A stretch of DNA of 64,000 nucleotides from an uncultured Pseudomonadales bacterium. Its GTDB lineage: Bacteria; Patescibacteriota; Microgenomatia; UBA1400; UBA12028. The stretch is taken from positions 32,907 to 96,906 of the forward strand of contig CAZDWN010000004.1 of NCBI GenBank assembly GCA_964509365.1, in the 5' to 3' direction. Positions within the stretch are counted from its first letter, which is position 1. The number at the start of each line of letters is the position of its first letter. Positions 5,995 to 55,093 of this stretch are shown here, piece after piece. The notes beneath the pieces are model-generated. The model saw only the letters and a list, made by a program, of their open reading frames with translations, had not been told where the DNA came from and searched no databases. The position numbers were made by a program, and so were the translations under genes.

Positions 5995-6195
5995 GAATTG
6001 TGGATAACTAGGGGGGGATAAGGTGTGAGTCATTCTACACAAACTCGCGTACTGACAGCTGACTGCGAAAAAGATATCCACTCTTTACACACGATTTAAT
6101 CTCGGTTATACATGGATCACCCACATGCTACACACACAAAATAAGCCAGAAGGTAGATCAAGAGTCGCGTTTAGCTCTCCACATATCCACAGACC
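5995..6195. promoter_or_regulatory. DnaA-box cluster between dnaA and dnaN (putative oriC part 2). Perfect box at 5999-6007 (reverse), one-mismatch box ATATCCACA at 6183-6191, a G7 homopolymer at 6011-6017, and an AT-rich stretch at 6220-6240 adjacent to the dnaN start.
   Basis: Direct consensus matches. The bipartite arrangement resembles Bacillus-type origins. Confidence 0.55.
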
Positions 6196-6240
6196 TACTA
6201 CTACTGCTACTAGTCTGTACTTAATAAAAATACACTACCT

Positions 6241-24966: not shown

Positions 24967-24978
24967 AAAAAACTTTCG

Positions 24979-25905: not shown

Positions 25906-26975
25906 AAACTCTTTATCAAGATTGGCTCGACTACTTGATTATTCAGGACCAGTGAGTACTTGTCAAAACGCAGTCCATCTTTTTCAGTCAAAATTGAATA
26001 CGCTCCACTTTCCAGAGGTGTCACGACAGCAAACTGTCCCAGCGTATTCGTTTTCATTGCGCGCACTGGATTGTTATCTGACTGTCTCGTGATCGTGATG
26101 ATTGCGCCCTCGACTATTTTATCATCATTCGTGACGACCATCCCTGCCAACATATTGGGATTCGTCGGCTTGTTTGGAAATGGAAATCCATTGAGGACGA
26201 TCACCGGTTTTATGACATCGGACTGCTGAAAAATTTGATGAGAGACGACCGTATGAAGCGTATCAGTGATTGCAGGGGTCACTGCTTGTTGTTTCTGGGC
26301 CATCAAATCACTTGTAATGCCAACTTTGTCTTGAGCGGGGATCGATGCAGTCGGCGCTATCTGACCCGTAGCTTCTGGGAGTATGGTGGGCTTCTTTTCC
26401 TCAACCTTCACGGGAGTTTCTGCAATGGTCGGTGTGATAGTCATCTCAGTGATATGTCCAACTTGTGTTGGGGAAGTGGTTTTGGCCTTTGTCGGCGCTT
26501 GAATTGTTTCATTAAAGAGTTTGAGGAGTTCATCAGCAGCTTTTGCTTCCTCATCTTTTTCAACTGGTTCACTGTTTACAGTGTGAACATACTCTTGTAG
26601 GCGTGACTGTCGAATAGGAGTGTAATCAATTTTTGGACTCGTATCCATGTCTTTCGGTGGAGCATAAGTGAAGACGCCAGGAGTGAGGTTTGTCTTTTTC
26701 CAGAAAAACATGGTTGGTTGATAAATTGACTTTACAAACGCAAAAAACCATCGATCAAGTGGGCGTCCTTCAAGGGGAATGAACGCAGCAGCGACGCCCA
26801 TGAGTCCAACGATCGCCATGAGAGGATATTTAAAAATTTGTGGGAGGTTCGTCCAGTAAATAAGTACTGCCGCGATGACACCAGCGGCGACTTCCATAAA
26901 CTGCTTGAGCGTCATTTGCCCAATGAGATGGAATTCATAGCCGGTGACATTTTGCGGGACTGGATGTTCTTGCAT
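25902..26975 (-). CDS. PrgI/VirB3-like T4SS membrane protein with extended C-terminal domain
   Basis: N-terminus with two TM helices (VTGYEFHLIGQMTLKQFMEVAAGVIAAVLIY, MAIVGLMGVAAAF) resembling the PrgI family. Immediately upstream of VirB4 as in Gram-positive systems. Confidence 0.6.
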   Translation of the reverse strand: MQEHPVPQNVTGYEFHLIGQMTLKQFMEVAAGVIAAVLIYWTNLPQIFKYPLMAIVGLMGVAAAFIPLEGRPLDRWFFAFVKSIYQPTMFFWKKTNLTPGVFTYAPPKDMDTSPKIDYTPIRQSRLQEYVHTVNSEPVEKDEEAKAADELLKLFNETIQAPTKAKTTSPTQVGHITEMTITPTIAETPVKVEEKKPTILPEATGQIAPTASIPAQDKVGITSDLMAQKQQAVTPAITDTLHTVVSHQIFQQSDVIKPVIVLNGFPFPNKPTNPNMLAGMVVTNDDKIVEGAIITITRQSDNNPVRAMKTNTLGQFAVVTPLESGAYSILTEKDGLRFDKYSLVLNNQVVEPILIKSL

Positions 26976-27036
26976 GAGATATGTATATGATACCTGATAG
27001 GACCAGAATGGTGAACTTGAGTTTTAGATAGGGATA

Positions 27037-27597
27037 CTAATAGGTCTCTTCGGCTGTTTGCGAGAGATCTTTTCCAATAGTGCTGAAAAAATCGGCTACC
27101 GTCATCGGCGTAAATCTCCAAATCTCAAACGTTGTTCCGTCATCATTTCTCGCAAAGGCAATCCCTTGCGTTGCAAATATTCTCAGCGGAAAGACGTGAC
27201 CTTGTTGCTTGGTATATCCCGTGGCCTCAGGTGCTCCGAGAGACGTGTACAGCTCTTCGTATTTCTTTGGCTGATTGATGTCAACTCGCTCGATCGAGTA
27301 GGAAAGCGTATCTCCATTGAGGACAAATTGAGTGGGGAATGTCTTGTAATCTGAAGGGTAGTCGAGAGTCTTCGTCGTCCCATTCACGTCTGTCTTTATT
27401 GGACTTCCAAATGCATTGGTAATGTCGGTCTCCATGGATTTTCCAGGTGTTACACCTTGAACGACGTTTGGTGCAGGTGTCGCCGCAGGCGCCTGATCCG
27501 TCTGAAGTTTCGGGGTGAAGTATCGCAGGACTATTGTCCCGATTAAAATCAAGATAAGGAGCAGGATATACCAGTATTTCAGCAATATTTTTCTCAT
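27037..27597 (-). CDS. Membrane-anchored hypothetical protein
   Basis: Start at MRKILLKYWYILLLILILIG (27597). Single N-terminal TM. Confidence 0.45.
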   Translation of the reverse strand: MRKILLKYWYILLLILILIGTIVLRYFTPKLQTDQAPAATPAPNVVQGVTPGKSMETDITNAFGSPIKTDVNGTTKTLDYPSDYKTFPTQFVLNGDTLSYSIERVDINQPKKYEELYTSLGAPEATGYTKQQGHVFPLRIFATQGIAFARNDDGTTFEIWRFTPMTVADFFSTIGKDLSQTAEETY

Positions 27598-27608
27598 AAC
27601 ACTTACTC

Positions 27609-30600
27609 CTAGTAACGTTGTGGAGCACAAGTAGATCCATCGGTAGGCCCACTCGGTTTTCCGTTGTCTTCAGGGAACATATGCACTTGCTCCCAAGCAA
27701 AGTGACTTGGATACGCACTGGCCATATTCATGCATTGACCGCCTAATCCGGGATAAGCTCGATTCATGTACGTCATATACACCGCGATCGATTCGGGAAA
27801 ATCCTCGACTACAGTTCCAGCTCCACCAAATGTATACGTTCGAAGATATCCCTCACTAAATGGACCACGGGTGAAATCTTGTACAAGGCTAGCATGGTTA
27901 TCTTCAATGACGTGTCCTGTCTCGTGAATGAGTGTAAAACGAATGTTGAGTATTGAGCTCGTAGCTGAGAACGTATTATCGAAAAGCGCAACAGTATTAT
28001 TCCCGAGGTATTGACCATACCATCTTGAGTCGGGCCCCACACTGCGACGAGTTAGTGTAACTGATCCGTGATCACATAAAATGTTTCGGTATGTGGGATA
28101 AGCTGCTGTGATGGCAAAGGCTTGGGTTAATTTTTGTTTCTCAATTTCAGACCATGATCCGTCTAGAACTAAGCAAGCGAGGTCATCTGGTGGATTTCCA
28201 AAGGAGACAGTAGCGCTTGTTGAAAATGTTTCACCTTGGGCTTGAGTTGCTCCAGATGAATTTTTGACATCAAATGTGACTGTAAGTACGTTTGATACTC
28301 GTGTGTCAGCGAAACTTGGATCGTACTTTATGGTGTATTCTTGAGTTGCAGTGGACTTAAACACGTCAAGTGGAGGAATCGTCGGAGCGACCGGGTGACC
28401 CTTTGAAGATATACTCACTGTATCAGTGGCATTGGTTATCGTGATCTGGTACGGTTGACCTTTTTCATCAACTTTCGGAGTGAGCTTTAAAGTGTATTTG
28501 ATAGATTTACTTGGAGTGAGGACGCTATTATCAGGATAGGAAGACTCACTCGGCTCCATGATTTTTGTGAGTTCGACATATCTTGAAGAGCCGATATCTT
28601 GTCCATCATTCGGAGTAATAAAAGAACCCGTCATTGCTGATGTGGCAATGAGAGCAGTTGCAGTCACGGTTGTAATGGTCCCGATGATCGTAGTAGCCAC
28701 AGGGAAAGATGCTGTGGTTCCTGGGAGAGCTCCAAGAAATGCATTTGTCCCACCTAATACATTTAGTCCGACTTTGCTCGCAGCAGCTTGCGTACCACTG
28801 AAGATATTCGCACCACTTTTTGCGGCAGCTGAGACCGTCTCAGGTCCGAGCTTGCTCATTGCAGTAAGTCCCTCTTTACCGAGGGTTGCAGTCGATCGAA
28901 TTCCTTCTAACGCTTTCGCTCCGTCTCCAATCCCATAGACGTTGGTCCCGATCATGTGAGCGACACTGGATCCACCAACTGGAATCAAAGATCCGATCGT
29001 CGTAACTCCGGCTCCAATAAATCCTCCTACCACAGTACCGACACCAGGGAAGATGTACGTTCCGATCAAAGCGCCTCCTGCAAATCCACCTGCGGCGCTC
29101 GTGAGTGCTCCGGCTCCAGTGGCTGCGCCTTGTGTAAATGCGTAGACAAGGCCGGCTCCAGTGGCGGCTCCTCCAGCTATGCCAGCTAGAGCCAGAGGAT
29201 TGGAGAGAATGCTCCGGGCGAGTTGGGCAGTCCGCTGCAGTCGACCGGAATTACTATTGATCTGGTTTACGCGGCTGTACGCCTCTCGTTGAGTCTGTGC
29301 TCGATCGGAGTCGTCTAACTGCGGTAGCTCTTGCGCATCGCCGCTACCAGCGAGTTCTATGGCTCCCAAAAGTTCGGCGATATTCTGATCTGCATTGAGC
29401 GGAACATTTTGTTCACCGAAGAGACTGAAAAATTGTCGCTTTTGCTGGCGCTGCTCTGCGTCACGACCAAGCGCAATATTTTCATAAAATTGCTCTTGCA
29501 GCGCGACTATGGTCGCCGCTTCTATGTATTGAGCTTGGAGCAACTCATCTTGCTTCCGTTGTTCCGCAAGTATTTCGACCGCTTCTTCTCGCACTTCACT
29601 AATTGTTTTGCGCTTTTTAATTTCTTGGGCGATTCCATCTCTTTCTTTGCGAGTTTGCTCAAGGGGAGTGGTCAACAGCTTATGATACGTCTCATCCTTT
29701 GGTACAGATGTCTTCAGCTCTGCCATTTGCTCGATGAGTTGTGCTTTGGCTTTTCTGATCTCGCTAGAAAGTTTGCTATTTCCAAAGTCATTGAGATCTT
29801 CAAAAACAGGAATTTTACCTGATTTTTTGAGCAAACTCTTCCGGGCTCGTAGTCGTAAAGCTTCGAAATAGGTGGGGAATGTGATCGCGAATTGAGGATT
29901 TGCGAGCGCCACCTCTTTGGTCAATTGAGCCAGCAATTGAGGAGGCACAGACTCAAAATATGCCGTAACGGTGGCGTACGTCTCGATGTATTCAAGTCGC
30001 CTAGGGTCAGACTCAAAGAACTTCTCTAATGTGGCTGGAGTACTGGAAGTAGCAACGGATTCTTGATTTTGTGATGACGCACGAGTCTTCGCGACTGCTT
30101 GGGAGGCGATATACAGTTCACTGAGTAGAGCTTCTGGAAGTCTCCTGACTGATCGAGAAAGTATTTTATCGATCTCTGCGGGGGTGAGAGATGTCCCTCG
30201 TTTCTCCGTCTCTTCTTCAATCAAATTCTTTGCGACGAGAAACTCGACATCCTCATTGGTGATTGTCCGTTCATCCGCCCCATTGCGCCTGCGCAGCGAG
30301 TTTATGATCGCTGCGCGCATGTCATATGCTTGCTTCAACTGCGCTTTTACGGCTTCATACTCTTTCTTGTCCATCGACTCAAGGTCAAGTTTATTCAAGC
30401 TACGAAATAACGTTTCAAAATCTGGGACAGGTGCGTTGATATCCATGCCATACATGAGAAGCAATCCATCATTGATGGCTTCGGCACGGGCCTTGTTGAT
30501 CTTTTCTCGACGTTCTTCATATGACCCAAACCCAGAAGTGTCTCCGTCTTTGTGTTCACTTGAACTGGTACGGCTTCCAGAGGGAAGAAAAGGCAAGGTT

Positions 30601-40351: not shown

Positions 40352-42280
40352 TCAGTTGCCCCAATCATCATCACTGAATGGTAAAGGATTTGAATTTGAA
40401 CTGCTGCTGCCTTTTCCGCCTGAACCGCCTTTGTTCTGAGCTTCCGTGACTTTAGTAAGCTTATCAAGTTGCTTCGACACGTTATCTGGATCGAACAGCT
40501 GCCCATCACGAAGTCTATCAATAGTCTTAGAGACGGTAAGTCCTTTACTCCAACCAGAAGGAATATTTCTTCGCAGACCGCCTCGATCATTTCCGCGTGC
40601 ATCTTTGGCACCACTCCATATTCCGGAGAGCACTCCTTCTCCTGAACGTCGGCCATAATATGCACCCAGGGCTGCTCCAGAAATTGCTCCACCAGCAACG
40701 CCGATTGCTGGAGCTGCATATTCATTTCCGGCCGCCAATTTATTCACGAGATCTTTCGGTGAGACATCGATCTTGCCTTTCATTATGCCCTTGGTGAGCT
40801 TAAGCACTTCCGGCATTGCCAATATAGCGCCTAGCGCCAAGAGATCCTGATAATAGGCAAATCCGCCCCCTTGGTTACTGCCAAGCTGCGGAGCAGAGAA
40901 ACCGCCACTATTTGCGACTTGTCCACCTCTGGCTATGTAGTAAGCAATAAAAATAAGCAGAACTAACACTGGGAACACCATTAAGTTTTCAAGAAGTCCT
41001 TTTAGCCATGATCCAAAAGTATTCTGACCAGGTAGTGCTCCAAGCAGAAGTTGGATAGGAGCAAAAATTACTGAGAAGAAAATACCCAAGTATGCTTGGA
41101 GTAATGCAAAGAACACTCGGAACAGGGAAACTATAATTGCCACAATCAAGATCAACATAAAAATTAAACTAGCTCCAAAAGTCACCACACCTGCGACCGT
41201 AGTATTCCATCCAAGATTAACGAGAATATTGGCTACAATTCTCCCCATGCTTTCAGAAATATTACTTGAAAGACTGGTCAACTTAATACCATTGGTAAAG
41301 ATGTCATTTCTAAATGCTACGTCCGAAAGTGACTGAGGCACACCTCCTGAGTTAATTTGTCCTCCGGGGAAGAGGCCGGTAAAGATCCCGATGATCAAAT
41401 ACATGACAAGGTACATAATGTCGATCAGTAGTCCTGCTATGGCATAGGAGAATGTCACAAGCAAAAGAGAGACGATGATCTTCGGGAGGGCCTGCTGCAC
41501 CGTAACTGCCGCCTGGCCACCGATCTTACTACGGAACATGATAAGAAAACCAATGACTAAGAAAATGATGACGAAGAAAAAGTAAGCTAAATTACGAAAC
41601 AATTTCCAGAGCTCAAGAACTGGGCTGAGCGCTGAGAACCCGAGACCCTGAGCGTACGCTGGTTGTGCTCCAAATGGGTTTTGGATGCTTTGGGCCACGT
41701 ACTGCATATATTCTCCAGTACTGGCTGGCTTATTGTATAGCTTGGCAACATATCCGATGGTTGCGTCAGTCACACCTCCGACTTGGACATAATAGTTCTC
41801 AGGTTTGCCTTCCGCGTTGAGTGCGGTCATTTGAGTTTTTATACCCCCAAGAGATACAATAAAATGAGCCTCCGCAGAGCAAAACATTGATGAACATGCT
41901 TTCTCCTCTGCATTTACAGTCATCGGTACGCCTCCTTCAAACGCTTGGGAGCTTTGTTTGCCACTAGTGGCTTGCTGGAGCGTGGCATTGAGCATTTGAA
42001 TGATGGTCGGTGGTGCTTTGGCAAATGCGCCAGGTGTATACGCTGATTGGCAGGTAGCTTGTTGACACTGAGCTAAGTTACCGTAGAAGGCTCCGGCGCC
42101 ACCTTGGGTACAAGAAACATACACCGGATACAAAGGGTCAGGCTGTCCGTTCGGTCCGGTTGGGTTACTGTGTGGCACGCAGTTTGCAGGGACCTGAGCC
42201 AACGCTTGAGTATGGATGCCAAAAGCAAAGAAGAAAATGAAGAGGCTTGCGATGAGGAAACGTGTCAGTCTCATACTCAT
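40352..42280 (-). CDS. VirB6/TrbL-like polytopic T4SS membrane protein
   Basis: Signal peptide. Cys-containing periplasmic N-domain. At least 6 TM helices in the middle. Gly-rich cytoplasmic C-terminal tail. Positioned in the T4SS locus. Confidence 0.68.
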   Translation of the reverse strand: MSMRLTRFLIASLFIFFFAFGIHTQALAQVPANCVPHSNPTGPNGQPDPLYPVYVSCTQGGAGAFYGNLAQCQQATCQSAYTPGAFAKAPPTIIQMLNATLQQATSGKQSSQAFEGGVPMTVNAEEKACSSMFCSAEAHFIVSLGGIKTQMTALNAEGKPENYYVQVGGVTDATIGYVAKLYNKPASTGEYMQYVAQSIQNPFGAQPAYAQGLGFSALSPVLELWKLFRNLAYFFFVIIFLVIGFLIMFRSKIGGQAAVTVQQALPKIIVSLLLVTFSYAIAGLLIDIMYLVMYLIIGIFTGLFPGGQINSGGVPQSLSDVAFRNDIFTNGIKLTSLSSNISESMGRIVANILVNLGWNTTVAGVVTFGASLIFMLILIVAIIVSLFRVFFALLQAYLGIFFSVIFAPIQLLLGALPGQNTFGSWLKGLLENLMVFPVLVLLIFIAYYIARGGQVANSGGFSAPQLGSNQGGGFAYYQDLLALGAILAMPEVLKLTKGIMKGKIDVSPKDLVNKLAAGNEYAAPAIGVAGGAISGAALGAYYGRRSGEGVLSGIWSGAKDARGNDRGGLRRNIPSGWSKGLTVSKTIDRLRDGQLFDPDNVSKQLDKLTKVTEAQNKGGSGGKGSSSSNSNPLPFSDDDWGN

Positions 42281-42322
42281 ATATTCTACACTAAATAATT
42301 CTCTAAAAAACAAGTGGAATAT

Positions 42323-45300
42323 TTAATACGTCGGTGCATAGAGTTCAATCGCGCATTCGCCATAGGTGAGGTTTACACCTGAAGCATTTGTACAGTTTGC
42401 ACTCGCATTCAAGATCTCACAGCTCCCATAATATGCGCCGGCTGCATTCATCCATTTCTTTTCTTCAGCGCTCGCATTCGGGTAGTTTGGAGAACAATTT
42501 GGATGAGCTTGCGCAGCGTAGTTGAATTTGAGCATTTGCGCACCGACTTTCAGAGACGCCAGCAAGTCACAAGGTGTTGATCCGGCGACTCCCGCCTGTG
42601 GCGAGTATGTACCCCAGTTGTCGTACGGTGCGCCGCACGCTTTTACCAAAACTTGCATTGCGCCGACAGCTCCGACACTGTTGGCTGTGCAGGCTACAGT
42701 AGTTTGATTATTTCTGTATGCTCGTAACGTGCTTCCACCTTCTATTTGGAGGACTCCCCAAAGATAATTGGCGGGGATACCGACACTTTGCGCTGCTTGC
42801 GCGACCAATGCTTTTAGAGGTCCCCAATCTCCGTCAGCGTGAGCTGGTAAGATTGTCGTCCCACTACAGAGAGAAGCGACAGGTGCACCAGGTGAAGAAG
42901 GCGTCCCGACTGCTCCTTGGGTACAAGCGGCAAGACCTTGCTGCAAGAATTTCTCAAATCCCGGATATTGGATCGTGGCTTTGCCGTTGTACGGTCGTGT
43001 CACATTGCAGACGACTTCCCATAGTGCTCGAGCGATTTTCCCTCCCGGGACTTGCGGATCGACGGTGACAGTTTTCTCAAGATTGAGTTGCCCTGAGAGC
43101 TTGCCATCGACAGTCTTTGTCCCTTGAGTGACTGTCCCATCAGGAAGAACGACTGGCGGGGCATTTGGATCTGGGATCGTGTAGCTCAGATCAGCTCCAT
43201 CAAATTTGGGATTGATGATGGATGTCGAGGAGCCAGTGATCTGTAGATATTTATAAGCTGCTTTTGGATTTGCAGCTCGCTCTGACTCGTACGTGATGAA
43301 ATTAAACTCTGGATGCTTGGTAATGTCTTGATAATCATAGGGAAGGAACGTCTGAAGGAACGGAGTCTCGTAGTCTGTAATGTTGCGATACTCTTCAGGC
43401 AACAATAAAAAGGTCTTAATGGTCCGATTGTCACTTCCGGGCTTGGTGGCGACCAAAGTCGCAGTCACTGGAATCTTTGCCAACTTCACAGGATCAAGCG
43501 TCCCCGCTGGGTTGATGGTGTGCACTCGTTCGGTCGCAGTCTCGCCGACCAAATCATCATGCGTACAAGCGTCTTGTCCACTCGTCGCGAACTCCGCATT
43601 GATGCGACGAACGATGGTAACTCTGGGAAGATACTCAGGGTTACTTTCCAAGATAGAGCAGCTCTCACATTTGATGCCGAGACCACTAGTTGCATTTGGC
43701 ATCGCTTTGATGAGTTTGTCGATCACAAGCGCACGTGTCTTGGCTATTTGAGTCTGGACGCTCATCGGCATGATGGAAGTGATCGTCTGCATGAATCCAC
43801 CAGTATAGGTGGGGAAGAACGTCGGCTGCTTTTCTTTTGGTTCCAGATCAGGATTGTTGTTCACTGCGTTGATATTGACCTCCGCAAATCCAGCAGGGAC
43901 ATAGACTTTGACGACTTTGATGCGATCAGTAAGGTTACGAGGATCACCGATGCCGCCATTTGCATCTTCTCCGGGAGCCAACCATACGACTCGTTTGTCG
44001 AGGTTGGTTTGCGGCGTCTCTGGTCGATCTACATAGTGGACTAAATATGCAGGTTTGAATCCTTTTGGTGTCGTCAACTCAACTTTTGAAAACGATCGAT
44101 ACCACGCCATCTCATTTTGAGTAAGCGTATCGACATTTCTGCAGCTAAAACTTTGCGGCATCTGCTCGAGGACTTTCTTATAAGTGTCGTACCTGGCATC
44201 GGCACCTGGAATTTGAGAGTAGAGTGCGCACTCTCCAGGGATCGGGGTAGGCTTTGGCGTTGCAGGGATATTTGCTGCAGCTTTCAATGCGTCGGCGTCG
44301 AGCTTGTCGTTGTAGGTGTATCCACTTCGATTGTTTTCGGTATCACACAGTTGCTTGATCGTCTGTAGATACGTAATCGTTGCTTGACACTGCTCTTGTG
44401 TCCCGATGACTTTTCTAGACACACCGTTTGCAAGCGGAGTAATCAGTGAGGAGCTCAGCGTATTTGCAGCTCCGACCAACTCTTCTTTGGTGTAGTTGGC
44501 ACTAAAAAATCCCTCAAGGTCGTCTAACCGTCTTTTTGGTTGATCGGGATTGGGGACTTGAGCGCCTTGAAAGCGAAACAGAGGAATGACGGCTTTGGTA
44601 CTATCGATGATGACATTGGCCCACACTCCAGGAATAGTGCATCTCCCATCAGGAGGATTTCCCGAGCAGTCAATCTCATACCCGGGTGGTCGATTGTTAA
44701 GTGCACTCTCATTTGAAATATCACCTTTTATTTTGAATTGATTACCACAAGTCAGCGTGTAGCCGGCCGCCATTTGACGCATTTTGTCGACATCTGGAGC
44801 CATATCTTCGATACCAGGGTAGACAAAGACCTGTCGTTTTCCTCCTCCACATTTCTCGGGTTTTTCGACTGCGAGATCGCCTTGGTGCCAATACTCACAG
44901 ATGGCAGGGACGGTATGATACCAATCGCTGTTGCCAGGGTCTGGGCTCGTTGGATTTCGCAAAAAACCCACCTTGGCGACGGCAGGCTGATCATTATTTT
45001 GAACGTAAAAGTCTTGGACACAATCAAAGTCCTTACAAGTCGTGATCCCGAACTCGGTGATATAGAGTTGGGCAGTGGATAAATTGCGTCCAGCGAGGCT
45101 ATTTATTTTACTTAAGACCCACTGACCACTGTTGACTGTGCATCGGGTCGCTTCATACGCGCCACATCCGCCGGTTTGATAAACGTTTGCAAATACGGCG
45201 CTAATCGCTGCTTTGTTTATTCCGGATGAAAAAATTTGATTGAGTGTTGTCGCGGCGTCATAATCGTCATTGATCGTATCCATGGTCGAGATGCCAAGTG

Positions 45301-45793
45301 GGCCTTTGCCATTCCAAGCAGAAGCAAATGTGTTAAAAAGCTGGGCATACTTTGTATAGTCACAATTCTTCCATTCACCATTGACTGGGTTTTGGTTATT
45401 TATTTCGTTACCGATGGTCACCGGTGTGCCGGCGGGGATTGCTCCAGCGAGCGTCGTCATGTCTTGTGTACTTGTATTGCAGTCAATATTGATACGAGCG
45501 ATCGCCAAGTATCCGCTTGAGAGGAGACTGACACCGGATCCATTCGGATAGACCATCACCACGACGGGGTAGGTGGGGCTTTTTAATCCTGAAGAAGTTA
45601 ACTTGTCTAAGACCTTTTTTTGAGCACCCTCATCACCTTGAATGAGGTGAGTACCGACTTTATCGACTTGAGTAGTTCCTTGGGCCCTGGTCGCAGTTGA
45701 GTCAAATAAAAACAGCCCTACGGCGAGGAGCAAAATGGGGAAGAAAAAGGCAAACGCACGGCAGAGTCGTCGCATGAATATAGTATACAACAC
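42323..45793 (-). CDS. Giant (1156 aa) secreted cell-wall hydrolase. N-terminal clan GH-A glycosidase-like domain plus C-terminal lysozyme-like/lytic transglycosylase (VirB1-like) domain.
   Basis: Signal peptide. IGNEIN (acid/base NE) and LYITEFG (nucleophile TE) about 110 aa apart. C-terminal LQIEGG...GAVGAMQV resembling SLT motifs (ES...GLMQ). Confidence 0.65.
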   Translation of the reverse strand: MLYTIFMRRLCRAFAFFFPILLLAVGLFLFDSTATRAQGTTQVDKVGTHLIQGDEGAQKKVLDKLTSSGLKSPTYPVVVMVYPNGSGVSLLSSGYLAIARINIDCNTSTQDMTTLAGAIPAGTPVTIGNEINNQNPVNGEWKNCDYTKYAQLFNTFASAWNGKGPLGISTMDTINDDYDAATTLNQIFSSGINKAAISAVFANVYQTGGCGAYEATRCTVNSGQWVLSKINSLAGRNLSTAQLYITEFGITTCKDFDCVQDFYVQNNDQPAVAKVGFLRNPTSPDPGNSDWYHTVPAICEYWHQGDLAVEKPEKCGGGKRQVFVYPGIEDMAPDVDKMRQMAAGYTLTCGNQFKIKGDISNESALNNRPPGYEIDCSGNPPDGRCTIPGVWANVIIDSTKAVIPLFRFQGAQVPNPDQPKRRLDDLEGFFSANYTKEELVGAANTLSSSLITPLANGVSRKVIGTQEQCQATITYLQTIKQLCDTENNRSGYTYNDKLDADALKAAANIPATPKPTPIPGECALYSQIPGADARYDTYKKVLEQMPQSFSCRNVDTLTQNEMAWYRSFSKVELTTPKGFKPAYLVHYVDRPETPQTNLDKRVVWLAPGEDANGGIGDPRNLTDRIKVVKVYVPAGFAEVNINAVNNNPDLEPKEKQPTFFPTYTGGFMQTITSIMPMSVQTQIAKTRALVIDKLIKAMPNATSGLGIKCESCSILESNPEYLPRVTIVRRINAEFATSGQDACTHDDLVGETATERVHTINPAGTLDPVKLAKIPVTATLVATKPGSDNRTIKTFLLLPEEYRNITDYETPFLQTFLPYDYQDITKHPEFNFITYESERAANPKAAYKYLQITGSSTSIINPKFDGADLSYTIPDPNAPPVVLPDGTVTQGTKTVDGKLSGQLNLEKTVTVDPQVPGGKIARALWEVVCNVTRPYNGKATIQYPGFEKFLQQGLAACTQGAVGTPSSPGAPVASLCSGTTILPAHADGDWGPLKALVAQAAQSVGIPANYLWGVLQIEGGSTLRAYRNNQTTVACTANSVGAVGAMQVLVKACGAPYDNWGTYSPQAGVAGSTPCDLLASLKVGAQMLKFNYAAQAHPNCSPNYPNASAEEKKWMNAAGAYYGSCEILNASANCTNASGVNLTYGECAIELYAPTY

Positions 45794-45799: not shown

Positions 45800-46213
45800 T
45801 TAGAGGGAGATCTTAAACTGAGTAAGCGCGGTGATGCCAGTGAAATCGGAGATGAATCGCAAGATGACATAGGAAGCCAAGGCGACCACAATTCCAATGA
45901 TCGCATACGTAATCGCGTTTTTCCCAGCGTCGATCCCTTTGCTATTGGATCCTGCAGTCATGTATTGAAAAGAACCCATGAGGAACATAATAAATGCCGC
46001 TATCCCGATGATCGTGATAAAGACAGCAAGCACGTTTGACACCAGACAGCCAATGCCCTGAATCGTGGCGACATCTGCTGCCGCCGTGGATGTACCGACA
46101 CACGCACCGGTCCACGCAGTTGTCTGTGCTTGAGCTCTCGGTACAATCGAAAGCACAAAAGCAATCAGTGACGAGAAGTAGGCGGTTTGGAATATTTTTC
46201 GATTTGTCATCAT
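45800..46213 (-). CDS. T4SS pilin-like protein (TrbC/VirB2-type, PF18895-like), paralog 1
   Basis: Signal peptide (MMTNRKIFQTAYFSSLIAFVLSIVPRAQA), then two hydrophobic helices flanking a short polar loop (YMTAGSNSKGIDAGKNAI). Confidence 0.7.
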   Translation of the reverse strand: MMTNRKIFQTAYFSSLIAFVLSIVPRAQAQTTAWTGACVGTSTAAADVATIQGIGCLVSNVLAVFITIIGIAAFIMFLMGSFQYMTAGSNSKGIDAGKNAITYAIIGIVVALASYVILRFISDFTGITALTQFKISL

Positions 46214-46250
46214 AGCAAGATTATAGCATTCCCGAGGTCGACTGCGTATC

Positions 46251-46278
46251 AAAAAAGCCCCCGGGGATACCGGGGGCC
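46251..46278 (-). terminator. Rho-independent terminator downstream of pilin paralog 2
   Basis: 8-bp GC stem (GCCCCCGG/CCGGGGGC) followed by a T6 run on the minus strand. Confidence 0.65.
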
Positions 46279-46300
46279 TTCTCATCACACCAATCAACAA

Positions 46301-46690
46301 TTAATATGCTGATGGGAGAGTGATGTTTGTTCCAATTGAAATTCCGAAGAAGTTCTGCAGCACAACTGAGATTGCCAATGCTGACGCAACAATCGCCAAA
46401 CCAATGATTGCATTGGTGATCTTTTGTCGAGCACTTTCAGTCTTACTCTTGTCTCCGCCAGCGGTCAGCCACTCAATACCACCCCAGATGAGGTAGATGA
46501 ACACCAACAAGCCGACGATACCGAGAGTGAACTTCAACAGCGAACTGATCAGTTTCCCGATGTCGTTGATCTTAAAGCCAGCTCCTGCGGCGTCGACGTT
46601 GATTGGAGTATCAACAGCGAATGCTGTTGAGGCTGCAAGTGCGAGAGTCGTGACACCTGTCGAAATCCCAGTGATTAATTTTTTGACCAT
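46301..46690 (-). CDS. T4SS pilin-like protein, paralog 2
   Basis: Signal peptide, then helix-WLTAGGDKSK-loop-helix (IYLIWGGIEWLTAGGDKSKTESARQKITNAIIGLAIV). Confidence 0.75.
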   Translation of the reverse strand: MVKKLITGISTGVTTLALAASTAFAVDTPINVDAAGAGFKINDIGKLISSLLKFTLGIVGLLVFIYLIWGGIEWLTAGGDKSKTESARQKITNAIIGLAIVASALAISVVLQNFFGISIGTNITLPSAY

Positions 46691-46776
46691 AGCATTCTCC
46701 TTTATAGAATATCGATATGCTACTAATGATATTCTATCATACTAGGGGAGGTAAAGGGGGGAATCAAGGGTGGATT

Positions 46777-47451
46777 TTACTGACAGCCTCGGATGTCCAC
46801 ACCAGGAAGTAGTGTCGTCCCGCCCAAACAGCCACATGGCTCAAGATGCGGATAGTTGAGGCCTCCCGCTCCAGCTGGCATACAGCGGACCGAGGCAGCT
46901 CCACTGTTTGAACAATAGCCGCCGGCACCGTTGTCACTGACAGTACTTCCAATAGCAATATTCCCGGCACACGTGTTCGCGACTGGCGTCGTCCCTGTAG
47001 TAGTGTTGCTTCCTCCTGGGGCAGGTTGCGTGGTGGTCGTCCCACCTCCTCCATTGCCTCCGCCGATGGTGACTTTGGTCGAAAGACCAAGGAAATTTAT
47101 GAGTATCGTATAGAACACGAATACGCATGCAAGGATGGCTAAGCCAATAATCGATTGCGTGATGCGACTGCGTCCTGCTTCGATCTTTGCTTTATCGCCC
47201 CCAGAGAGCAACCACTCTGCGCCGCCCCAAATAAGATAGACGAACAGAATAAAGCCACTGATGCCTGCGACCCACTTTGAGACGGAGCCAAGGAGTATTC
47301 CAAGATTTGAGACGAGATACCCAGACGTCGCCGGGGCAACGGTCACGGAATCATCATAGCCAGGAGGAAGTCCTTGCGCAGTGATCACACTTGGCAGAAA
47401 AATAGCACTGCCAATCAGAATTGCCAAAATAAGTGTGAACTTTTTTATCAT
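46777..47451 (-). CDS. T4SS pilin-like protein, paralog 3, with Gly/Thr- and Cys-rich C-terminal extension
   Basis: Pilin core VYLIWGGAEWLLSGGDKAKIEAGRSRITQSIIGLAIL plus about 100 aa G/T/C-rich tail. Confidence 0.72.
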   Translation of the reverse strand: MIKKFTLILAILIGSAIFLPSVITAQGLPPGYDDSVTVAPATSGYLVSNLGILLGSVSKWVAGISGFILFVYLIWGGAEWLLSGGDKAKIEAGRSRITQSIIGLAILACVFVFYTILINFLGLSTKVTIGGGNGGGGTTTTQPAPGGSNTTTGTTPVANTCAGNIAIGSTVSDNGAGGYCSNSGAASVRCMPAGAGGLNYPHLEPCGCLGGTTLLPGVDIRGCQ

Positions 47452-47456
47452 AGAGA

Positions 47457-47819
47457 CTAGGCTCTGTACTCATGCGTTGGAATACTTCCCATTCCGTAGT
47501 TGCCGATGTTAAATCGTGTGCGCAGACCAAGGAAATTGAGAACAAGCCCAAAGATCAAGAAGACGGATGCCAATATGACGAGTCCGATCACGCCCTGCGT
47601 CATCATACCTCGTGCTTCTTCGATCTTTCCTTTCTCTCCTCCAGCAGTAATCCAGCTAAATGCACCGTAGAGTAAGAAGTAGAGGACGGCGATCGTCCCA
47701 ACCGTGAGAATGGCGCTTGCGCCAATTTGTAACAATTGATCTAGAGTGCCAATAGGAGATATCAGCGCAGTTGATCCGCCAATGTTGAGTGGTTGAGTCT
47801 GGGCAAGCAGTATAAACAT
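47457..47819 (-). CDS. T4SS pilin-like protein, paralog 4
   Basis: Core LYGAFSWITAGGEKGKIEEARGMMTQGVIGLVIL. Confidence 0.72.
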   Translation of the reverse strand: MFILLAQTQPLNIGGSTALISPIGTLDQLLQIGASAILTVGTIAVLYFLLYGAFSWITAGGEKGKIEEARGMMTQGVIGLVILASVFLIFGLVLNFLGLRTRFNIGNYGMGSIPTHEYRA

Positions 47820-47830
47820 AAAACTACTTT

Positions 47831-48169
47831 CTATACATTATTCGCAAATTGTAGATTCAATAGATCGATTCCTAATACTTTGCCTACGAAGACGCTGATC
47901 GCAACGGTGCCCGCTAGGACGAGCATACCGATGACACTTTGAGTCATGCGATCTCTGGCTGCCTGTACTTTGCCTTTTTCACCACCCGCAGTGATCCATT
48001 CAAGTGCCCCAATGATCAACATAATAAGGAGTGCTAAGCCACCGAGAGTGATTGCCGTTCGCCAGAGCGTAATGATGATACTGGCCAGAGCCGTGCTCGG
48101 AGCGGCGGCAGCAGAACCAAAAACAGGAGCGACGGCCGGGTTGGTAATCTGTGCAATAAGTGTAAACAT
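47831..48169 (-). CDS. T4SS pilin-like protein, paralog 5
   Basis: Core IIGALEWITAGGEKGKVQAARDRMTQSVIGMLVL. Confidence 0.72.
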   Translation of the reverse strand: MFTLIAQITNPAVAPVFGSAAAAPSTALASIIITLWRTAITLGGLALLIMLIIGALEWITAGGEKGKVQAARDRMTQSVIGMLVLAGTVAISVFVGKVLGIDLLNLQFANNV

Positions 48170-48173
48170 ACAT

Positions 48174-48548
48174 TTACCTCGGTAAAATTGTTCCTATCAT
48201 TTTCACTGGGTCAAGTAAATCTATGCCAAGTACTCTGCCAACGACACCGGCAATACTATAAGCAGCGATCACTACGACAAGTCCAAGTGCGGCTTGAGTC
48301 ATCTGGTTGCGAGCCGCTTCGACTTTGCCTTTGTCCCCACCAGCTGTAATCCAGGACAGACCAGCAAAGATCAAGTAAATCAAAAACATGATACCGGCGA
48401 GACCAGTGACGAATCCAATGATATTACTGATGAAAAGGGCAATTGGCGTGCCCACACCAACTGCACCTGCGCCAGGAGAAAAAACCGCGGTAGGTGGATC
48501 TAGTTGACCAAGTTGAAGTGTGCCTGCGGCTGCAAGTAGTTGTGACAT
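48174..48548 (-). CDS. T4SS pilin-like protein, paralog 6
   Basis: Core IFAGLSWITAGGDKGKVEAARNQMTQAALGLVVV. Confidence 0.72.
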   Translation of the reverse strand: MSQLLAAAGTLQLGQLDPPTAVFSPGAGAVGVGTPIALFISNIIGFVTGLAGIMFLIYLIFAGLSWITAGGDKGKVEAARNQMTQAALGLVVVIAAYSIAGVVGRVLGIDLLDPVKMIGTILPR

Positions 48549-48551
48549 ACA

Positions 48552-48908
48552 TTATGGCAATGCCGTCGGGATTGTCGGCCTAAGAATAAACATAGAATCA
48601 CCAAACAAAAGCAAACTCACGAGCGCTGTTATTAAGAATGCACCCGCGATAATCACGAGACCAATCAAACTGTACGTCATCTGATTCATGGCCTGTTCAG
48701 TGGCTTTCGCATTCCCGCCTGAACTTAAATACGTGTAACCGGCCGAGATAATATTGAATAGTCCAAAAAGACCGGCGACTACGGTAACGAGTTTAATGAT
48801 ATTTGAGATAAAGACCAATAGTCCCGCCGGACCGGGTGTGAACTTATCTACTCCTGGCGGGGTAGTCACTGAGCCAAATATTTGAAAAACCATGAAGCTA
48901 AGCATCAT
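48552..48908 (-). CDS. T4SS pilin-like protein, paralog 7
   Basis: Core ISAGYTYLSSGGNAKATEQAMNQMTYSLIGLVII. Confidence 0.68.
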   Translation of the reverse strand: MMLSFMVFQIFGSVTTPPGVDKFTPGPAGLLVFISNIIKLVTVVAGLFGLFNIISAGYTYLSSGGNAKATEQAMNQMTYSLIGLVIIAGAFLITALVSLLLFGDSMFILRPTIPTALP

Positions 48909-48920
48909 ATGTATTTTGTA

Positions 48921-49274
48921 TTATAGCGTCGCATTCAATATTGGTACACCGGTGAATGCCTGAACGATCTGAATAATCCAATACGCAGCAAAAATAATGA
49001 TAAAACCGATGATCGCTCCCATGATCTGATTCTTGCCAGATTCCACGCTCTTGGCATTGCCTCCGGAGGCAACGATCGAAAAGCCGCCACCGATTATCAG
49101 GAAAAGCAGTACCAACCCGGAAATGACAAAGATGATGGGGATCAAGAGATTGAGAAACGATGCGACAGAAGGATATGAGCTGGCAATTGTGCCACCTTTT
49201 TCATTGATTTTGAGCATGGTCCCCAGGCTCTGTGCCGGTGCTCCATTTCCACTGCCTAAAGCAAGTAAACTCAT
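48921..49274 (-). CDS. T4SS pilin-like protein, paralog 8
   Basis: Core IIGGGFSIVASGGNAKSVESGKNQIMGAIIGFIII. Start at MSLLALGS (49274), avoiding overlap with the divergent sigma gene. Confidence 0.65.
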   Translation of the reverse strand: MSLLALGSGNGAPAQSLGTMLKINEKGGTIASSYPSVASFLNLLIPIIFVISGLVLLFLIIGGGFSIVASGGNAKSVESGKNQIMGAIIGFIIIFAAYWIIQIVQAFTGVPILNATL

Positions 49275-49290
49275 ACCAGTAGTATACAAT

Positions 49291-49854
49291 ATGTTCATGC
49301 AGTTTAGAAATGAGCAAGACCTCATCGTAAAGCTCAAGGCGGGCGAAAGTTCGAGCGTCAACATCTGGTATGCGACCTCAAAAGACGAGTTACTTGCATT
49401 TTTCCTCAAGAGAATGAGTAGTGAAGCTGATGCGCAGGAGCTCGTCCATGATACGTATCTGTCTTGTCTTTCTTCGCTTCCACTTTTTCGTGGTGATTCC
49501 GGATTATGGACATTTATGGTGTCGATTGCTCGTCACGAGCTCGCTGACTACTGGCGCAAACGATACGCCAAGAAAGCTATTGCGCTTTTACCGTTTGGGC
49601 AAGAACTTCTTGATTCCGTCGAGGGTGATGCTGATGAGCACTCCTGGGTACTCGATCACGGGCGGGAAATATCCCATATCCTGCATCAATTACCTGAGGA
49701 AATCTCAGAATTGCTGCAACTCAAATATGTCGACGGCTTGTCTGTAAAAGAGCTTGCGACTCACTACGGGTTGAGTTTTGCGGCGATGCAAAGTAAATTG
49801 CATCGAGCCAAAGCGGTATTTAAAGAACAGTATGAACGAACCACAATTTCTTGA
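49291..49854 (+). CDS. ECF-type RNA polymerase sigma factor (sigma-70 regions 2 and 4)
   Basis: Region 2 ELVHDTYLSCL...ARHELADYWRKRY. Region 4 LLQLKYVDGLSVKELATHYGLSFAAMQSKLHRAK. Start at Met 49291, not the tool's 49033. Confidence 0.8.
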   Translation: MFMQFRNEQDLIVKLKAGESSSVNIWYATSKDELLAFFLKRMSSEADAQELVHDTYLSCLSSLPLFRGDSGLWTFMVSIARHELADYWRKRYAKKAIALLPFGQELLDSVEGDADEHSWVLDHGREISHILHQLPEEISELLQLKYVDGLSVKELATHYGLSFAAMQSKLHRAKAVFKEQYERTTIS

Positions 49855-52831: not shown

Positions 52832-53416
52832 CTACAAGATGCTGATTCCAAAAATAGTTTGCACCAGTTGTGCGATCCAATAGGAGGAGAAGAGCAAAAT
52901 AAAGCCGATGATCGCTGCATTGATGCGCTGTTTCCCCGCTTCTTGAGATTTCGGATTCGCTGCTCCAGTCAACATCTCAAATCCTCCCCATATCAACATA
53001 ATAAACAGGATCAACCCTCCAAATGTCATCAAATAGGGAAGCAATCGGCTGAGAATTCCACGAGGAGTGGTCAAATCTGCATTTGGCGTCCCTCCAAAAA
53101 TTGATGCATTTAAACTGTCCAATGTCGCCGCATTAAGACCAACGCCTCCTCCTCCAGGTGCTTGACCAAATTGTTGGCAAAGCTGAGATGGTGTGGGTGG
53201 GCCGCAATAATACGCAGTGGTTCCGTCGGGGCACGTAGTCGTTTGAAGCGTACAAGTCGCTGGAATTGGATTACCGTTTGGACCAGTAATCGTCTGCAGG
53301 CAGGTAATTGGAGCAGTTGACCAGCTACCACAATTTCCTGCTGCGGCGCTGACTCGTTGAGTAGTTGAAAGAAGGACGAGTAAGGCAAGTACGCAGCTAA
53401 TACAGAATCTTCTCAT
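52832..53416 (-). CDS. T4SS pilin-like protein, paralog 9, with Cys-rich N-terminal extension
   Basis: Signal peptide, about 100 aa Cys/Pro-rich region, then pilin core LIWGGFEMLTGAANPKSQEAGKQRINAAIIGFILL. Confidence 0.7.
   Translation of the reverse strand: MRRFCISCVLALLVLLSTTQRVSAAAGNCGSWSTAPITCLQTITGPNGNPIPATCTLQTTTCPDGTTAYYCGPPTPSQLCQQFGQAPGGGGVGLNAATLDSLNASIFGGTPNADLTTPRGILSRLLPYLMTFGGLILFIMLIWGGFEMLTGAANPKSQEAGKQRINAAIIGFILLFSSYWIAQLVQTIFGISIL
52971..53039. repeat. Near-identical 69-bp segment (66/69) shared with 53596..53664
   Basis: caacatctcaaatcctccccatatcaacataataaacaggatcaaccctccaaatgtcatcaaataggg compared with copy 2. Flanks diverge but stay protein-similar. Confidence 0.8.
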
Positions 53417-53457
53417 ACCTGTAGCGTACAGGATTTTGCGTGCCTTGAAAAGCCGAT

Positions 53458-53799
53458 TTATAGAATAGAAATGCCGAAGATCGTTTGCACCAGTTGTGCC
53501 AACCAGTAAGACGAGAAGAGTAAGATAAAGCCAATGAGTGCCGACGTGATCCTCGATTTGCCTGCTTGTTGGGCTTTTGGGTCGGCAGCTCCTCCCAACA
53601 TCTCAAACCCTCCCCAGATCAACATGATAAACAGGATCAACCCTCCAAATGTCATCAAATAGGGGAGTAGTTCTGAGAGGATGCCTCTTGGCGTGCTAAA
53701 AGTAGTCGCCTTGGCTGCATCAGGTACGAGCTCAGTATTGAGAGCATCCAGACACCCCTTCGTCAACGTGTCACAGGCAGCTGCTATGAGATTTGGCAT
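53458..53799 (-). CDS. T4SS pilin-like protein, paralog 10 (recent duplicate of paralog 9 core)
   Basis: C-terminal 77 aa about 85 percent identical to paralog 9 (PRGILSELLPYLMTFGGLILFIMLIWGGFEML...). Confidence 0.7.
   Translation of the reverse strand: MPNLIAAACDTLTKGCLDALNTELVPDAAKATTFSTPRGILSELLPYLMTFGGLILFIMLIWGGFEMLGGAADPKAQQAGKSRITSALIGFILLFSSYWLAQLVQTIFGISIL
53596..53664. repeat. Second copy of the 69-bp near-identical segment
   Basis: See 52971..53039. Confidence 0.8.
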
Positions 53800-53822
53800 A
53801 TATAAGGGTATTTTACCATTCT

Positions 53823-54992
53823 TTATGTCCCAAAGCCTGGAATCTGGAGAATTGTCACTCCGATGAAGCGCAGAATGATGATCGAGAAAATGACAAACAA
53901 GAGACCCATGATCGCACTCGTGATCATTTCTTGCCCCTCTTTGACTCGCGTCGGATCGCCACTACTTGTCGTCAGTAGGAATGCGCCGTACAGGATTGAG
54001 AGAAGCACGAAGCCTCCGGAGATCCCCATGCCAATGCGAATGAAAGACGTGACAATGCCTTCCTTTGTTGTTCCCACACATCCAAACGCAGTCCAGTACT
54101 CCCCATTGTTAAAACAATTTTGGCATAGAGTCTTATCGTTACCGGTTGCCTGATCACACAAAACGAAAGGAGCCGCAGTCGTCCCTGTTCCTGAATTACC
54201 GTTTCCTGGATTTGTAGGGACTGTTGTCCCACTATTTGGATCATAGGCAAGATTAATTGAGCAGTATCCTTGGATTCCTCCAGCTTGAATTATCGAGATT
54301 GTTGTCGTTTTCAAAGGATCAATAGCGAACGATTTTGAGACAGTTCCGGAACTGCTTGTGAAATTACTAGAAAACTGGTACGTCGCACCCGTCTGTGCAA
54401 GACGAATCTGGTATGACTTGGAGTCTTTTATGCCGCTGGCGTTGTATGTCGTCGTAACCGAAGTTGTACTAGCAAGGATTGGATTTGGTGAATAGGCTAA
54501 ACTGCTGCAATCAGGAGTAATCACTGTGCTAGATATATCACTGATGCTGAACGCATTCTCAAACTTGCACAAATCTTGAGCTGTAGAGCCAATTGTTCCT
54601 CGCAGGACCAGGTAGTAGTCTGCAGACGTTCCGGCATTTGCAGGCTTTATCGTATCTATTGGCACTGGAGCTGTAACGGTCTTTCCATCAGTCGAAAGTG
54701 TGGCTGTTCTCTTTGAACAATAGCCGAATGTATCGCCATTCAAACATGCCCAAATTTCAAAATTAGACGCGGTTGACTGCCAATTTGGCGTTGTTGGGGT
54801 AAAAGTGAATTGAACGTTTGAACCCGGCCCGTAGTCTGCAGGTACTGTTGAATCGGAAGAATAAGTCTTTGTCGTCCCAGCAGCTGGACTCAAAGAACAG
54901 TTAAAAACCTGAGCAGAAACAATGTAATCGGAGTGCAAGAAAACAAGAGACAGAATCAAGACTACAAAGATAGCTTTTATTTTGGCCCCCAT
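53823..54992 (-). CDS. Large pilin-like protein (389 aa). Signal peptide, about 280-aa Ser/Thr/Cys-rich extracellular domain (adhesin-like), C-terminal T4SS-pilin module.
   Basis: C-terminus LLSILYGAFLLTTSSGDPTRVKEGQEMITSAIMGLLFVIF matches the pilin core pattern. Eight-plus Cys in the N-domain. Confidence 0.62.
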   Translation of the reverse strand: MGAKIKAIFVVLILSLVFLHSDYIVSAQVFNCSLSPAAGTTKTYSSDSTVPADYGPGSNVQFTFTPTTPNWQSTASNFEIWACLNGDTFGYCSKRTATLSTDGKTVTAPVPIDTIKPANAGTSADYYLVLRGTIGSTAQDLCKFENAFSISDISSTVITPDCSSLAYSPNPILASTTSVTTTYNASGIKDSKSYQIRLAQTGATYQFSSNFTSSSGTVSKSFAIDPLKTTTISIIQAGGIQGYCSINLAYDPNSGTTVPTNPGNGNSGTGTTAAPFVLCDQATGNDKTLCQNCFNNGEYWTAFGCVGTTKEGIVTSFIRIGMGISGGFVLLSILYGAFLLTTSSGDPTRVKEGQEMITSAIMGLLFVIFSIIILRFIGVTILQIPGFGT

Positions 54993-55093
54993 ACCCTCTA
55001 ATTTTACCTCCTAATGCTCAATGAGCCAAGGGTGTAACTTTGATCACGCATTTTCGGGTGGGAATGCACTCTCAACTACGCTAGAATGGCTAC

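Follow-up and report, generated by a model that had tools for sequence, protein, structure and literature searches.

Within a 64,000-nucleotide (nt) stretch of DNA from an uncultured Pseudomonadales bacterium (GTDB lineage Patescibacteriota, Microgenomatia, UBA1400, UBA12028; GenBank assembly GCA_964509365.1, contig CAZDWN010000004.1, positions 32,907 to 96,906), hereafter the window, three consecutive minus-strand genes at 52832-54992 encode proteins of 389, 113 and 194 amino acids (aa) that share a C-terminal pilin-like module and differ in their N-terminal parts. This locus raises the question of which surface machine the module belongs to and what the variable N-terminal domains contribute to it. 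We found that the module is a VirB2/TrbC-like pilin of a type IV secretion system (T4SS), that the three genes are the head of one larger array, and that the N-terminal domain of the 389-aa protein appears to be exchanged as a cassette between related genomes.

A secretion-pilin module behind different N-terminal domains

The three open reading frames (ORFs) were confirmed, and the C-terminal residues common to the 194- and 113-aa proteins were identical at 67 of 77 positions (87%), or 68 of 79, close to the figure of about 85% given by an earlier, sequence-only reading of this DNA. The Pfam scan matched both modules to PF18895 (T4SS_pilin) with 38.5 and 39.8 bits, respectively, against a gathering threshold of 26.6 bits, which shows that the shared segment is not simply of low complexity. 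In the 389-aa protein the module occupies residues 310-389, behind about 280 extra residues, as the same reading had described, and is about 30% identical to that of the other two proteins. PF18895 alone gave 17.3 bits for this protein (E 0.005), under the threshold, and a local hidden Markov model (HMM) of the window paralogues gave 77.7 bits, a score that is partly circular because the 389-aa protein itself was included. Independently of the local HMM, many homologues of the 389-aa protein have a precomputed PF18895 match.

The relationship to classical VirB2 was less pronounced. Matches to PF04956 (TrbC/VirB2) stayed under the gathering threshold of 27.9 bits, with 24.5 bits (E 3e-5) for the paralogue at 48174-48548, 20.4 bits for the 194-aa protein and 15.9 bits for the 113-aa protein, and E-values that spanned 3e-5 to 1.5e-2. 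An hhalign comparison of 20 modules with six annotated plasmid VirB2/TrbC proteins gave an E-value of 0.033 over 60 colinear columns, which is too weak for a claim. When the PDB was searched with a profile of 47 sequences, no pilin was returned, only chance-level matches to light-harvesting alpha chains, and the best Foldseek hit in the PDB had an E-value of 0.74, a two-helix hairpin being too simple a fold to discriminate. None of the three proteins matched PHROGs, and therefore no link to phage receptor-binding proteins emerged. Small mature size (about 70-120 aa) without a globular domain, as is usual for VirB2/TrbC, was found only in the product of the 113-aa gene; the 194- and 389-aa proteins depart from it through their folded N-terminal domains. 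For the family of the three proteins, published work accepts that it is homologous to classical VirB2; we regard this homology as plausible and the link itself as moderate.

We also compared the proteins with other pilin families. The Mbov_0395/MMCAP2_0565 family of mycoplasma integrative and conjugative elements (NF045849) is similar in being a small two-helix pilin-like protein of a monoderm T4SS, but it lacks an ectodomain and comes from a mobile-element conjugation system, and all three proteins scored 16-24 bits, far under its cut-off of 40 bits. The Pfam scan returned only PF18895 and PF04956, and no type IV pilus (T4P) pilin family at E <= 1. The T4P signature of a class III signal peptide, a prepilin-peptidase site and a single N-terminal helix is absent, as the module is C-terminal and has two helices, and the proteins begin with either a short tail or an ordinary Sec-type signal peptide. 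The "pilin" label of the sequence-only reading therefore holds in the sense of a conserved membrane module of a pilin family, but the module is the two-helix VirB2/TrbC-like T4SS_pilin (PF18895) of Patescibacteria and not a T4P pilin or minor pilin.

Hydropathy placed hydrophobic segments at residues 121-153 and 167-186 of the 194-aa protein and a similar pair in every paralogue, and AlphaFold2 (AF2) models contained helical hairpins at residues 118-150/155-189 of this protein and 310-342/347-376 of the 389-aa protein. The loop between the helices is short and rich in Lys and Arg (PKSQEAGKQR). By the positive-inside rule, this loop should therefore face the cytoplasm and the N- and C-termini should lie outside, a topology to which the Cys-rich N-terminal domains also point. 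In particular, the numbers of Cys residues are even (10 in the 389-aa protein and 6 outside the signal peptide of the 194-aa protein), which fits an extracellular N-terminal domain. These two proteins would thereby carry predicted disulfide-rich domains on their outward-facing N-terminus.

The N-terminal parts are predicted to adopt a fold and not to be disordered linkers, with predicted local distance difference test (pLDDT) values of about 82-92. The model of the 389-aa protein (mean pLDDT 78.6) begins with the signal helix, and its ectodomain is predicted to form two immunoglobulin (Ig)-like beta-sandwiches, both at about 87-93, followed by a conserved 4-Cys knot. The 248 residues of this ectodomain comprise 16% Thr, 14% Ser and 6 Cys. 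The model of the 194-aa protein (mean pLDDT 84.2) consists of a beta-rich Cys domain, a linker, a short helix and the hairpin; the 71 residues after its signal peptide (aa 25-95) contain 6 Cys, 13% Pro, 17% Gly and 17% Thr. The 113-aa protein has no signal peptide and begins with a tail of about 35 residues with 2 Cys, followed directly by the hairpin module. The N-termini of the two shorter proteins are unrelated, as the sequence-only reading had stated.

The three genes are separated by only 41 nt (194/113) and 23 nt (113/389), as read off the sequence, and a promoter-like site lies 5' of the 389-aa gene (Table 1); they therefore probably form one operon. The C-terminal IPGFG (53826-53843, minus strand) and the 4-Cys motif before helix 1 occur in the 389-aa long form and not in the short paralogues. 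We also observed that the paralogues without signal peptides open alike, with MFTLIAQ, MFILLAQ, MSQLLAA and MPNLIAA (47831-48169, 47457-47819, 48174-48548 and 53458-53799, respectively, all on the minus strand). These N-tails would have to cross the membrane, and the window also holds a YidC gene.

Ectodomain replacement and short-tract gene conversion

The alignment of 22 homologues of the 389-aa protein revealed three conserved parts, namely the first Cys after the signal peptide, the F.LC.Q..C..C..WTAFGC motif and the hairpin with its invariant IPGFG; about 250 residues in between could not be aligned. At locus L088, from a close relative, most neighbouring proteins were 86-97% identical to those of the window (SpoIID 90%, UppS 87%, IPK 89%, NusA 97%). 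The counterpart of the 389-aa protein at this locus retained 22 of the 27 signal-peptide residues (81%) and 95 of 114 C-terminal residues (83%), and its ectodomain had no detectable similarity to that of the window protein (z 1.3). Similarity to L088 at the DNA level extended from upstream of the gene through position 54931, was then lost and resumed at 54098, and this break brackets the ectodomain cassette. Loci L090 and L091, which carry protein P0004, gave the same picture, with 88% identity in SpoIID, 19 of 27 residues in the signal peptide, 76% in the C-terminus and no detectable similarity in the ectodomain. At L092 (protein P0002), SpoIID was 76% identical, the signal peptide was unrelated and the C-terminus was 75% identical, while the ectodomain was 50% identical (z 71).

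Because close genomes differ in the ectodomain and the more distant L092 shares it, the phylogeny of the ectodomain is decoupled from that of the backbone, which is due to either cassette exchange or long-lived polymorphism. Judged from these sequences, the ectodomains appear to be swapped as cassettes, with conserved sequence on either side in the form of the signal peptide and the C-terminal module, an interpretation that is strongly backed by the replacements at L088 and the P0004 loci and by the sharing at L092. The suggestion of the sequence-only reading that domains are shuffled onto a conserved pilin anchor was thus borne out. A homologue search with the ectodomain alone recovered only the query, but this search was insensitive and missed even P0002 at 50% identity; the ectodomain is rare by this measure, which understates the number of its relatives.

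Variation was also found in the other two genes. In L088, the third gene carries a Cys-rich domain of another length and Cys pattern, as judged by eye, and in other relatives it bears between one and four Cys repeats of the CCGW type, joined to a module with 70-80% identity. The middle gene encodes 113 aa in the window versus 310 aa in L001. The third gene of L088 appears to have been missed by the gene caller: the public call at 9867-10391 (plus strand) is an antisense 144-aa ORF (9950-10384), and the real gene, which corresponds to the 194-aa gene of the window, apparently encodes a pilin of 174 aa whose Cys domain is of the CCGF type.

The sequence-only reading had described the 194- and 113-aa genes as a recent duplicate pair, with a 69-nt stretch identical at 66 positions. 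We found this count to be correct and the duplication to be old. Over the full 237-nt module the two genes were identical at 177 positions (75%), with 15, 7 and 38 differences at the three codon positions; the identity was concentrated in the 69-nt tract that encodes the first transmembrane helix (66/69), compared with 111/168 in the remaining module. Among codons for the same residue, 16 of 19 were identical in the tract compared with 15 of 44 outside it (Fisher p = 3e-4; p = 0.03 in a permutation test of this contrast that allows for the choice of window), and synonymous sites outside the tract were heavily diverged.

Both paralogues have orthologues in at least four related genomes. Orthologues of the 113-aa gene are P0067, P0070, P0072 and the 119-aa gene of L088, and those of the 194-aa gene are P0054, P0055 and P0056, at 66-87% identity. 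The pair recurs as 113 + 194 aa on L002 and L003, as 119 + 174 aa on L088 and as 310 + 197 aa on L001. In a neighbour-joining tree of the module without the tract, third genes grouped together and middle genes grouped together, as expected of orthologues. In contrast, the tree of the tract paired the paralogues by genome in three of five genomes; in these three genomes 66, 65 and 61 of the 69 positions were identical within the genome, whereas all pairs between genomes had 46-58. A constraint at the nucleotide level was rejected as the origin of the 69-nt identity on the basis of these between-genome values.

The orthology tree places the duplication before the split of at least four lineages. 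These patterns indicate that the two genes are old paralogues whose helix-1 stretch has been homogenised by recurrent short-tract gene conversion, independently in three genomes. Recent duplication is ruled out by the orthology tree.

The pilin array and the secretion machine

The local HMM identified eleven genes with the module in the window, all on the minus strand, of which eight lie at 45800-49409 and three at 52832-54992 (Table 1). The two runs are about 3.4 kb apart, separated by genes for an extracytoplasmic function (ECF) sigma factor, IDI, IPK and UppS and by small ORFs, a distance that exceeds the single intervening gene of the published array definition. The same split by the ECF sigma factor and isoprenoid genes was present in L001 and L088. 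The three genes, which had been taken for a separate second pilin cluster, are thus the head of one array that is contiguous in other genomes. In the fetched part of L088, gene order is kept and one-to-one orthologues with 55-80% identity were found for six of the eight short pilins at 45800-49409. Stable orthologues of this kind, seen in one close relative, suggest that each paralogue has a role of its own in a heteromeric structure and speak against interchangeable copies or simple antigenic variation.

A scan for generality, with one genome per species, returned 78 loci from Microgenomatia-type metagenome-assembled genomes (MAGs). Nearly all of these loci had a long form (200-700 aa, with the module at the C-terminus) followed directly by at least one pilin-module gene, often with an N-terminal extension of its own, and in L032, L038, L039 and L055 the long form headed contiguous arrays of 11-12 pilin genes. 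A profile search of 1.84 billion cluster representatives gave 1,453 matches at E <= 1e-30, and the best 150 of these were mostly 380-490 aa long. Homologues and syntenic loci came from Woesebacteria and other Microgenomatia MAGs, with named relatives mostly Candidatus Woesebacteria. Among L004-L081, many MAG records are titled "uncultured Pseudomonadales" or "Gammaproteobacteria" and one "candidate division TM6", which look like placeholder or wrong taxonomy.

The window is chromosomal, with YidC, dnaA and dnaN at 2.7-7.3 kb. About 17 kb from dnaA/dnaN lies a T4SS block that encodes VirB4-like, TrsD-like and PrgI/VirB3-family proteins and that is presumably the machine served by the pilins; these genes are 15-30 kb from the pilins in the same window, not adjoining them. 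Neither a relaxase nor a coupling protein was found among the window ORFs that were scanned. This arrangement resembles the published T4SS of Patescibacteria, which has an MPF_FATA-like VirB4, often near dnaA and hence near the origin, and VirB2-like arrays of 2-11 genes that are commonest in Microgenomatia and Saccharimonadia (PMC12102498). In Southlakia epibionticum, the pilin array is essential (PMC10633639; PMC12857230).

As in the arrays of Southlakia epibionticum (SEML1_0006-0019) and of the 2025 survey, the genes of the window are tandem, divergent PF18895/PF04956 pilins on a chromosome with MPF_FATA-like VirB4/TrsD/PrgI genes near dnaA. We also observed differences. The published pilins are described as small, whereas two members here carry folded ectodomains of 50-250 residues. 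The highest published identity within an array is 54%, presumably over the full length, and is not strictly comparable with the 87% found here in the module.

Table 1. Positions in the window of the pilin genes and their parts, the secretion block and neighbouring features.
Feature	Position	Strand	Basis or remark
Long-form VirB2-like pilin, 389 aa	53823..54992	-	signal peptide aa 1-27
Beta-sandwich domain 1 (389 aa)	aa 30-152 = nt 54537-54905	-	AF2 model
Beta-sandwich domain 2 (389 aa)	aa 162-250 = nt 54243-54509	-	AF2 model
Disordered Gly/Asn/Thr/Pro linker (389 aa)	aa 256-276	-	AF2 model
Invariant 4-Cys mini-domain (389 aa)	aa 278-307	-	F.LC.Q..C..C..WTAFGC
Helical hairpin (389 aa)	aa 310-376 = nt 53865-54065	-	then invariant C-terminal IPGFG
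Bare VirB2-like pilin, 113 aa	53458..53799	-	PF18895 39.8 bits; hydropathy
VirB2-like pilin, 194 aa	52832..53416	-	PF18895 38.5 bits; signal peptide aa 1-24
Small Cys-rich beta domain (194 aa)	aa 25-72	-	then Gly linker, helix aa 96-107
Hairpin (194 aa)	aa 118-189 = nt 52850-53065	-	AF2 pLDDT >90
Gene-conversion tract, copy in 194-aa gene	52970..53038	-	encodes first transmembrane helix; PYLMTFGGLILFIMLIWGGFEML
Gene-conversion tract, copy in 113-aa gene	53596..53664	-	counterpart of 52970-53038
Promoter-like site, 5' of 389-aa gene	55001..55029	-	TTGGCT-17-TAAAAT; consensus scan, score not above chance region-wide
Eight further module genes (approximate)	45800-46213, 46301-46693, 46777-47451, 47457-47819, 47831-48169, 48174-48548, 48552-48908, 48921-49409	-	local HMM 63-103 bits across the eight; PF18895 matches
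VirB4-like ATPase	23038-24966	-	Pfam/NCBIfam scans
TrsD-like protein	24979-25905	-	Pfam/NCBIfam scans
PrgI/VirB3-family protein	25902-26975	-	Pfam/NCBIfam scans
197-aa ORF and 1209-aa ORF	rest of block 23038-31238	-	1209-aa ORF without family match
YidC	2761-3534
dnaA/dnaN	4441-7344
ECF sigma factor	49420-49854	+	divergent from eight-gene run
ORFs of 1206, 653 and 1156 aa	36637-40257, 40352-42313, 42323-45793	+, -, -	without Pfam/NCBIfam match
325-aa lamin-tail protein	35594-36571	-	PF00932, 61.8 bits
570-aa protein	57997-59709	+	without Pfam match

Proposed role of the ectodomains and competing explanations

The reading that we favour, with moderate confidence, is that this locus is the head of an array of eleven VirB2/TrbC-like pilins whose ectodomains are displayed through the VirB4/TrsD/PrgI machine for host binding. 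The hairpin would mark the subunits as handled by this machine, and the long form and short pilins may co-assemble into a surface filament or a wall-spanning stalk. The variable ectodomains would then face outwards, most plausibly at or near the distal end, a placement suggested by the long form heading the array. There they could bind the surface of a host bacterium, and turnover of the cassettes might reflect host-range change or an arms race. The idea of a tip adhesin from the sequence-only reading thus loses its T4P minor-pilin frame, and the analogy must move to another machine; the adhesin role of the ectodomains is one that we infer.

Several points weigh against this proposal. Polymerisation is an assumption, as a pilus has yet to be seen in any member of the Patescibacteria (PMC12857230), and the array is 15-30 kb from virB4 rather than beside it. 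The AF2 model of the ectodomain was built on a shallow alignment with only one true ectodomain homologue, and an Ig-like fold is generic and in itself no sign of binding. Additionally, a VirB2-type filament could hardly accommodate a domain of 250 residues on each subunit, and the long form is therefore either sub-stoichiometric or not polymerised.

The absence of an observed pilus, the distance from virB4 and this steric difficulty would suit another explanation, in which the hairpin is a mere membrane anchor and the ectodomains act on the monoderm cell surface as adhesins or wall-interacting proteins independently of the machine; the structural searches, which did not single out conjugative pilins, agree with it as well. 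We consider this explanation, the main rival, less likely, because the module is that of a family of short pilins whose genes lie within T4SS clusters and which S. epibionticum cannot do without, and the long form is syntenic with, and heads, short-pilin arrays across 78 genomes. Moreover, the hairpin is kept at 75-83% identity while the ectodomain is replaced, which suits contacts with other subunits or the machine and would be needless for an anchor. The collinear one-to-one orthologues that the fetched part of L088 contains for six of eight short pilins suggest distinct structural roles, and together with the invariant 4-Cys knot and IPGFG terminus they would accommodate a heteromeric, wall-spanning conduit in which each paralogue has one conserved role and the ectodomains serve as spacers or caps or attach to the wall of the cell itself, without recognising a host. 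A domain that is self-binding or purely structural should be conserved, and here it is replaced between genomes with about 90% identity in the neighbouring genes, which makes the conduit unlikely. The literal version of the sequence-only reading, a T4P minor-pilin and tip-adhesin cluster with a recently duplicated pair, is very improbable. Besides the pilin label and the high identity of the pair, it could draw on the start M-F-T-L-I-A-Q of some paralogues without signal peptides, which is loosely prepilin-like; however, the T4P part is ruled out by the module architecture, with two C-terminal helices, no prepilin-peptidase site and no T4P family at E <= 1, and the duplication is older than the separation of at least four lineages, with synonymous sites heavily diverged outside the tract.

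The favoured reading of displayed ectodomains was compared with better-known systems. The Agrobacterium-type (MPF_T) VirB2 and VirB5 are similar in the two-helix pilin with a charged loop and outward termini, and in having one subunit that polymerises and another that contacts the host from the pilus tip, where VirB5 is located (PMC12857230). In contrast, the putative contact domain here is fused to a VirB2-like hairpin and there is no separate protein of VirB5 fold; the sequences resemble real VirB2 only marginally (hhalign E 0.033), the envelope is monoderm, and head-to-tail cyclisation of the 389-aa protein is unlikely.

Minor pilins of T4P and pseudopilins of type II secretion systems, such as tip subunits of the GspK type, combine a conserved polymerisation module with a bulky domain that fits only at the filament tip. 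They follow the same logic as proposed here and are encoded with other minor subunits, but the fold and machine are unrelated, and their module, one helix at the N-terminus, comes with a prepilin-peptidase site; the window proteins have no such module.

The multi-copy virB2 genes of Bartonella and Anaplasma, in the passage of the survey that treats them, show tandem amplification and variation with a proposed role in host-surface interaction or antigenic variation (PMC12102498). These pilins are small and their variation lies in the pilin itself, whereas here the hairpin is conserved and the variation lies in appended ectodomains, and the six of eight short pilins that could be checked in L088 each have a stable one-to-one orthologue.

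The T4SS array system itself is known from publications of 2023-2025, and the survey by Quinonero-Coronel et al. (2025) detected no adhesin with the system (PMC12102498). In the searchable literature, we found neither array-leading VirB2-like proteins with large folded ectodomains nor cassette-like ectodomain exchange and local gene conversion between array paralogues. The present results correct the description of such arrays, in that their members are not all small and that gene conversion can homogenise paralogues over short stretches. A large VirB2-like family in a conserved position, whose outward domain is replaced in near-identical backgrounds, is a concrete candidate for a determinant of host specificity. 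As the secretion system is essential in one relative and yet functionally unexplained, this offers a testable candidate for host recognition. In a bolder and less probable reading, the long form, which heads arrays across Microgenomatia, would be a new class of pilin-adhesin fusion (signal peptide, swappable Ig-like ectodomain, 4-Cys knot, VirB2-like hairpin and IPGFG) and the missing host-recognition part of the T4SS; the ectodomain type would then set the host to which an epibiont can attach, and recombination at the conserved signal-peptide and C-terminal borders would be the route to host switching.

Further observations concern individual genes of the array and its surroundings. The array gene at 46777-47451 has a reversed layout, in which the module comes first, near the N-terminus, and about 100 residues rich in Gly, Thr and Cys extend the C-terminus; it is only 55% identical to its L088 orthologue, compared with 64-80% for the adjoining short pilins. 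The ECF sigma factor gene is divergent from the eight-gene run, an arrangement kept in L001 and L088, and its product may regulate the pilin array. Beside the array lie three giant ORFs without family matches (Table 1), and L001 has a gene of 1204 aa directly after its array; such ORFs may encode components of the surface or of the machine. The lamin-tail protein is encoded between a 5'-3' exonuclease gene and these giant ORFs. Finally, the 570-aa protein is 56% identical to its L088 orthologue, with neighbours at 81-97%, and represents a second fast-evolving gene near the pilin locus.

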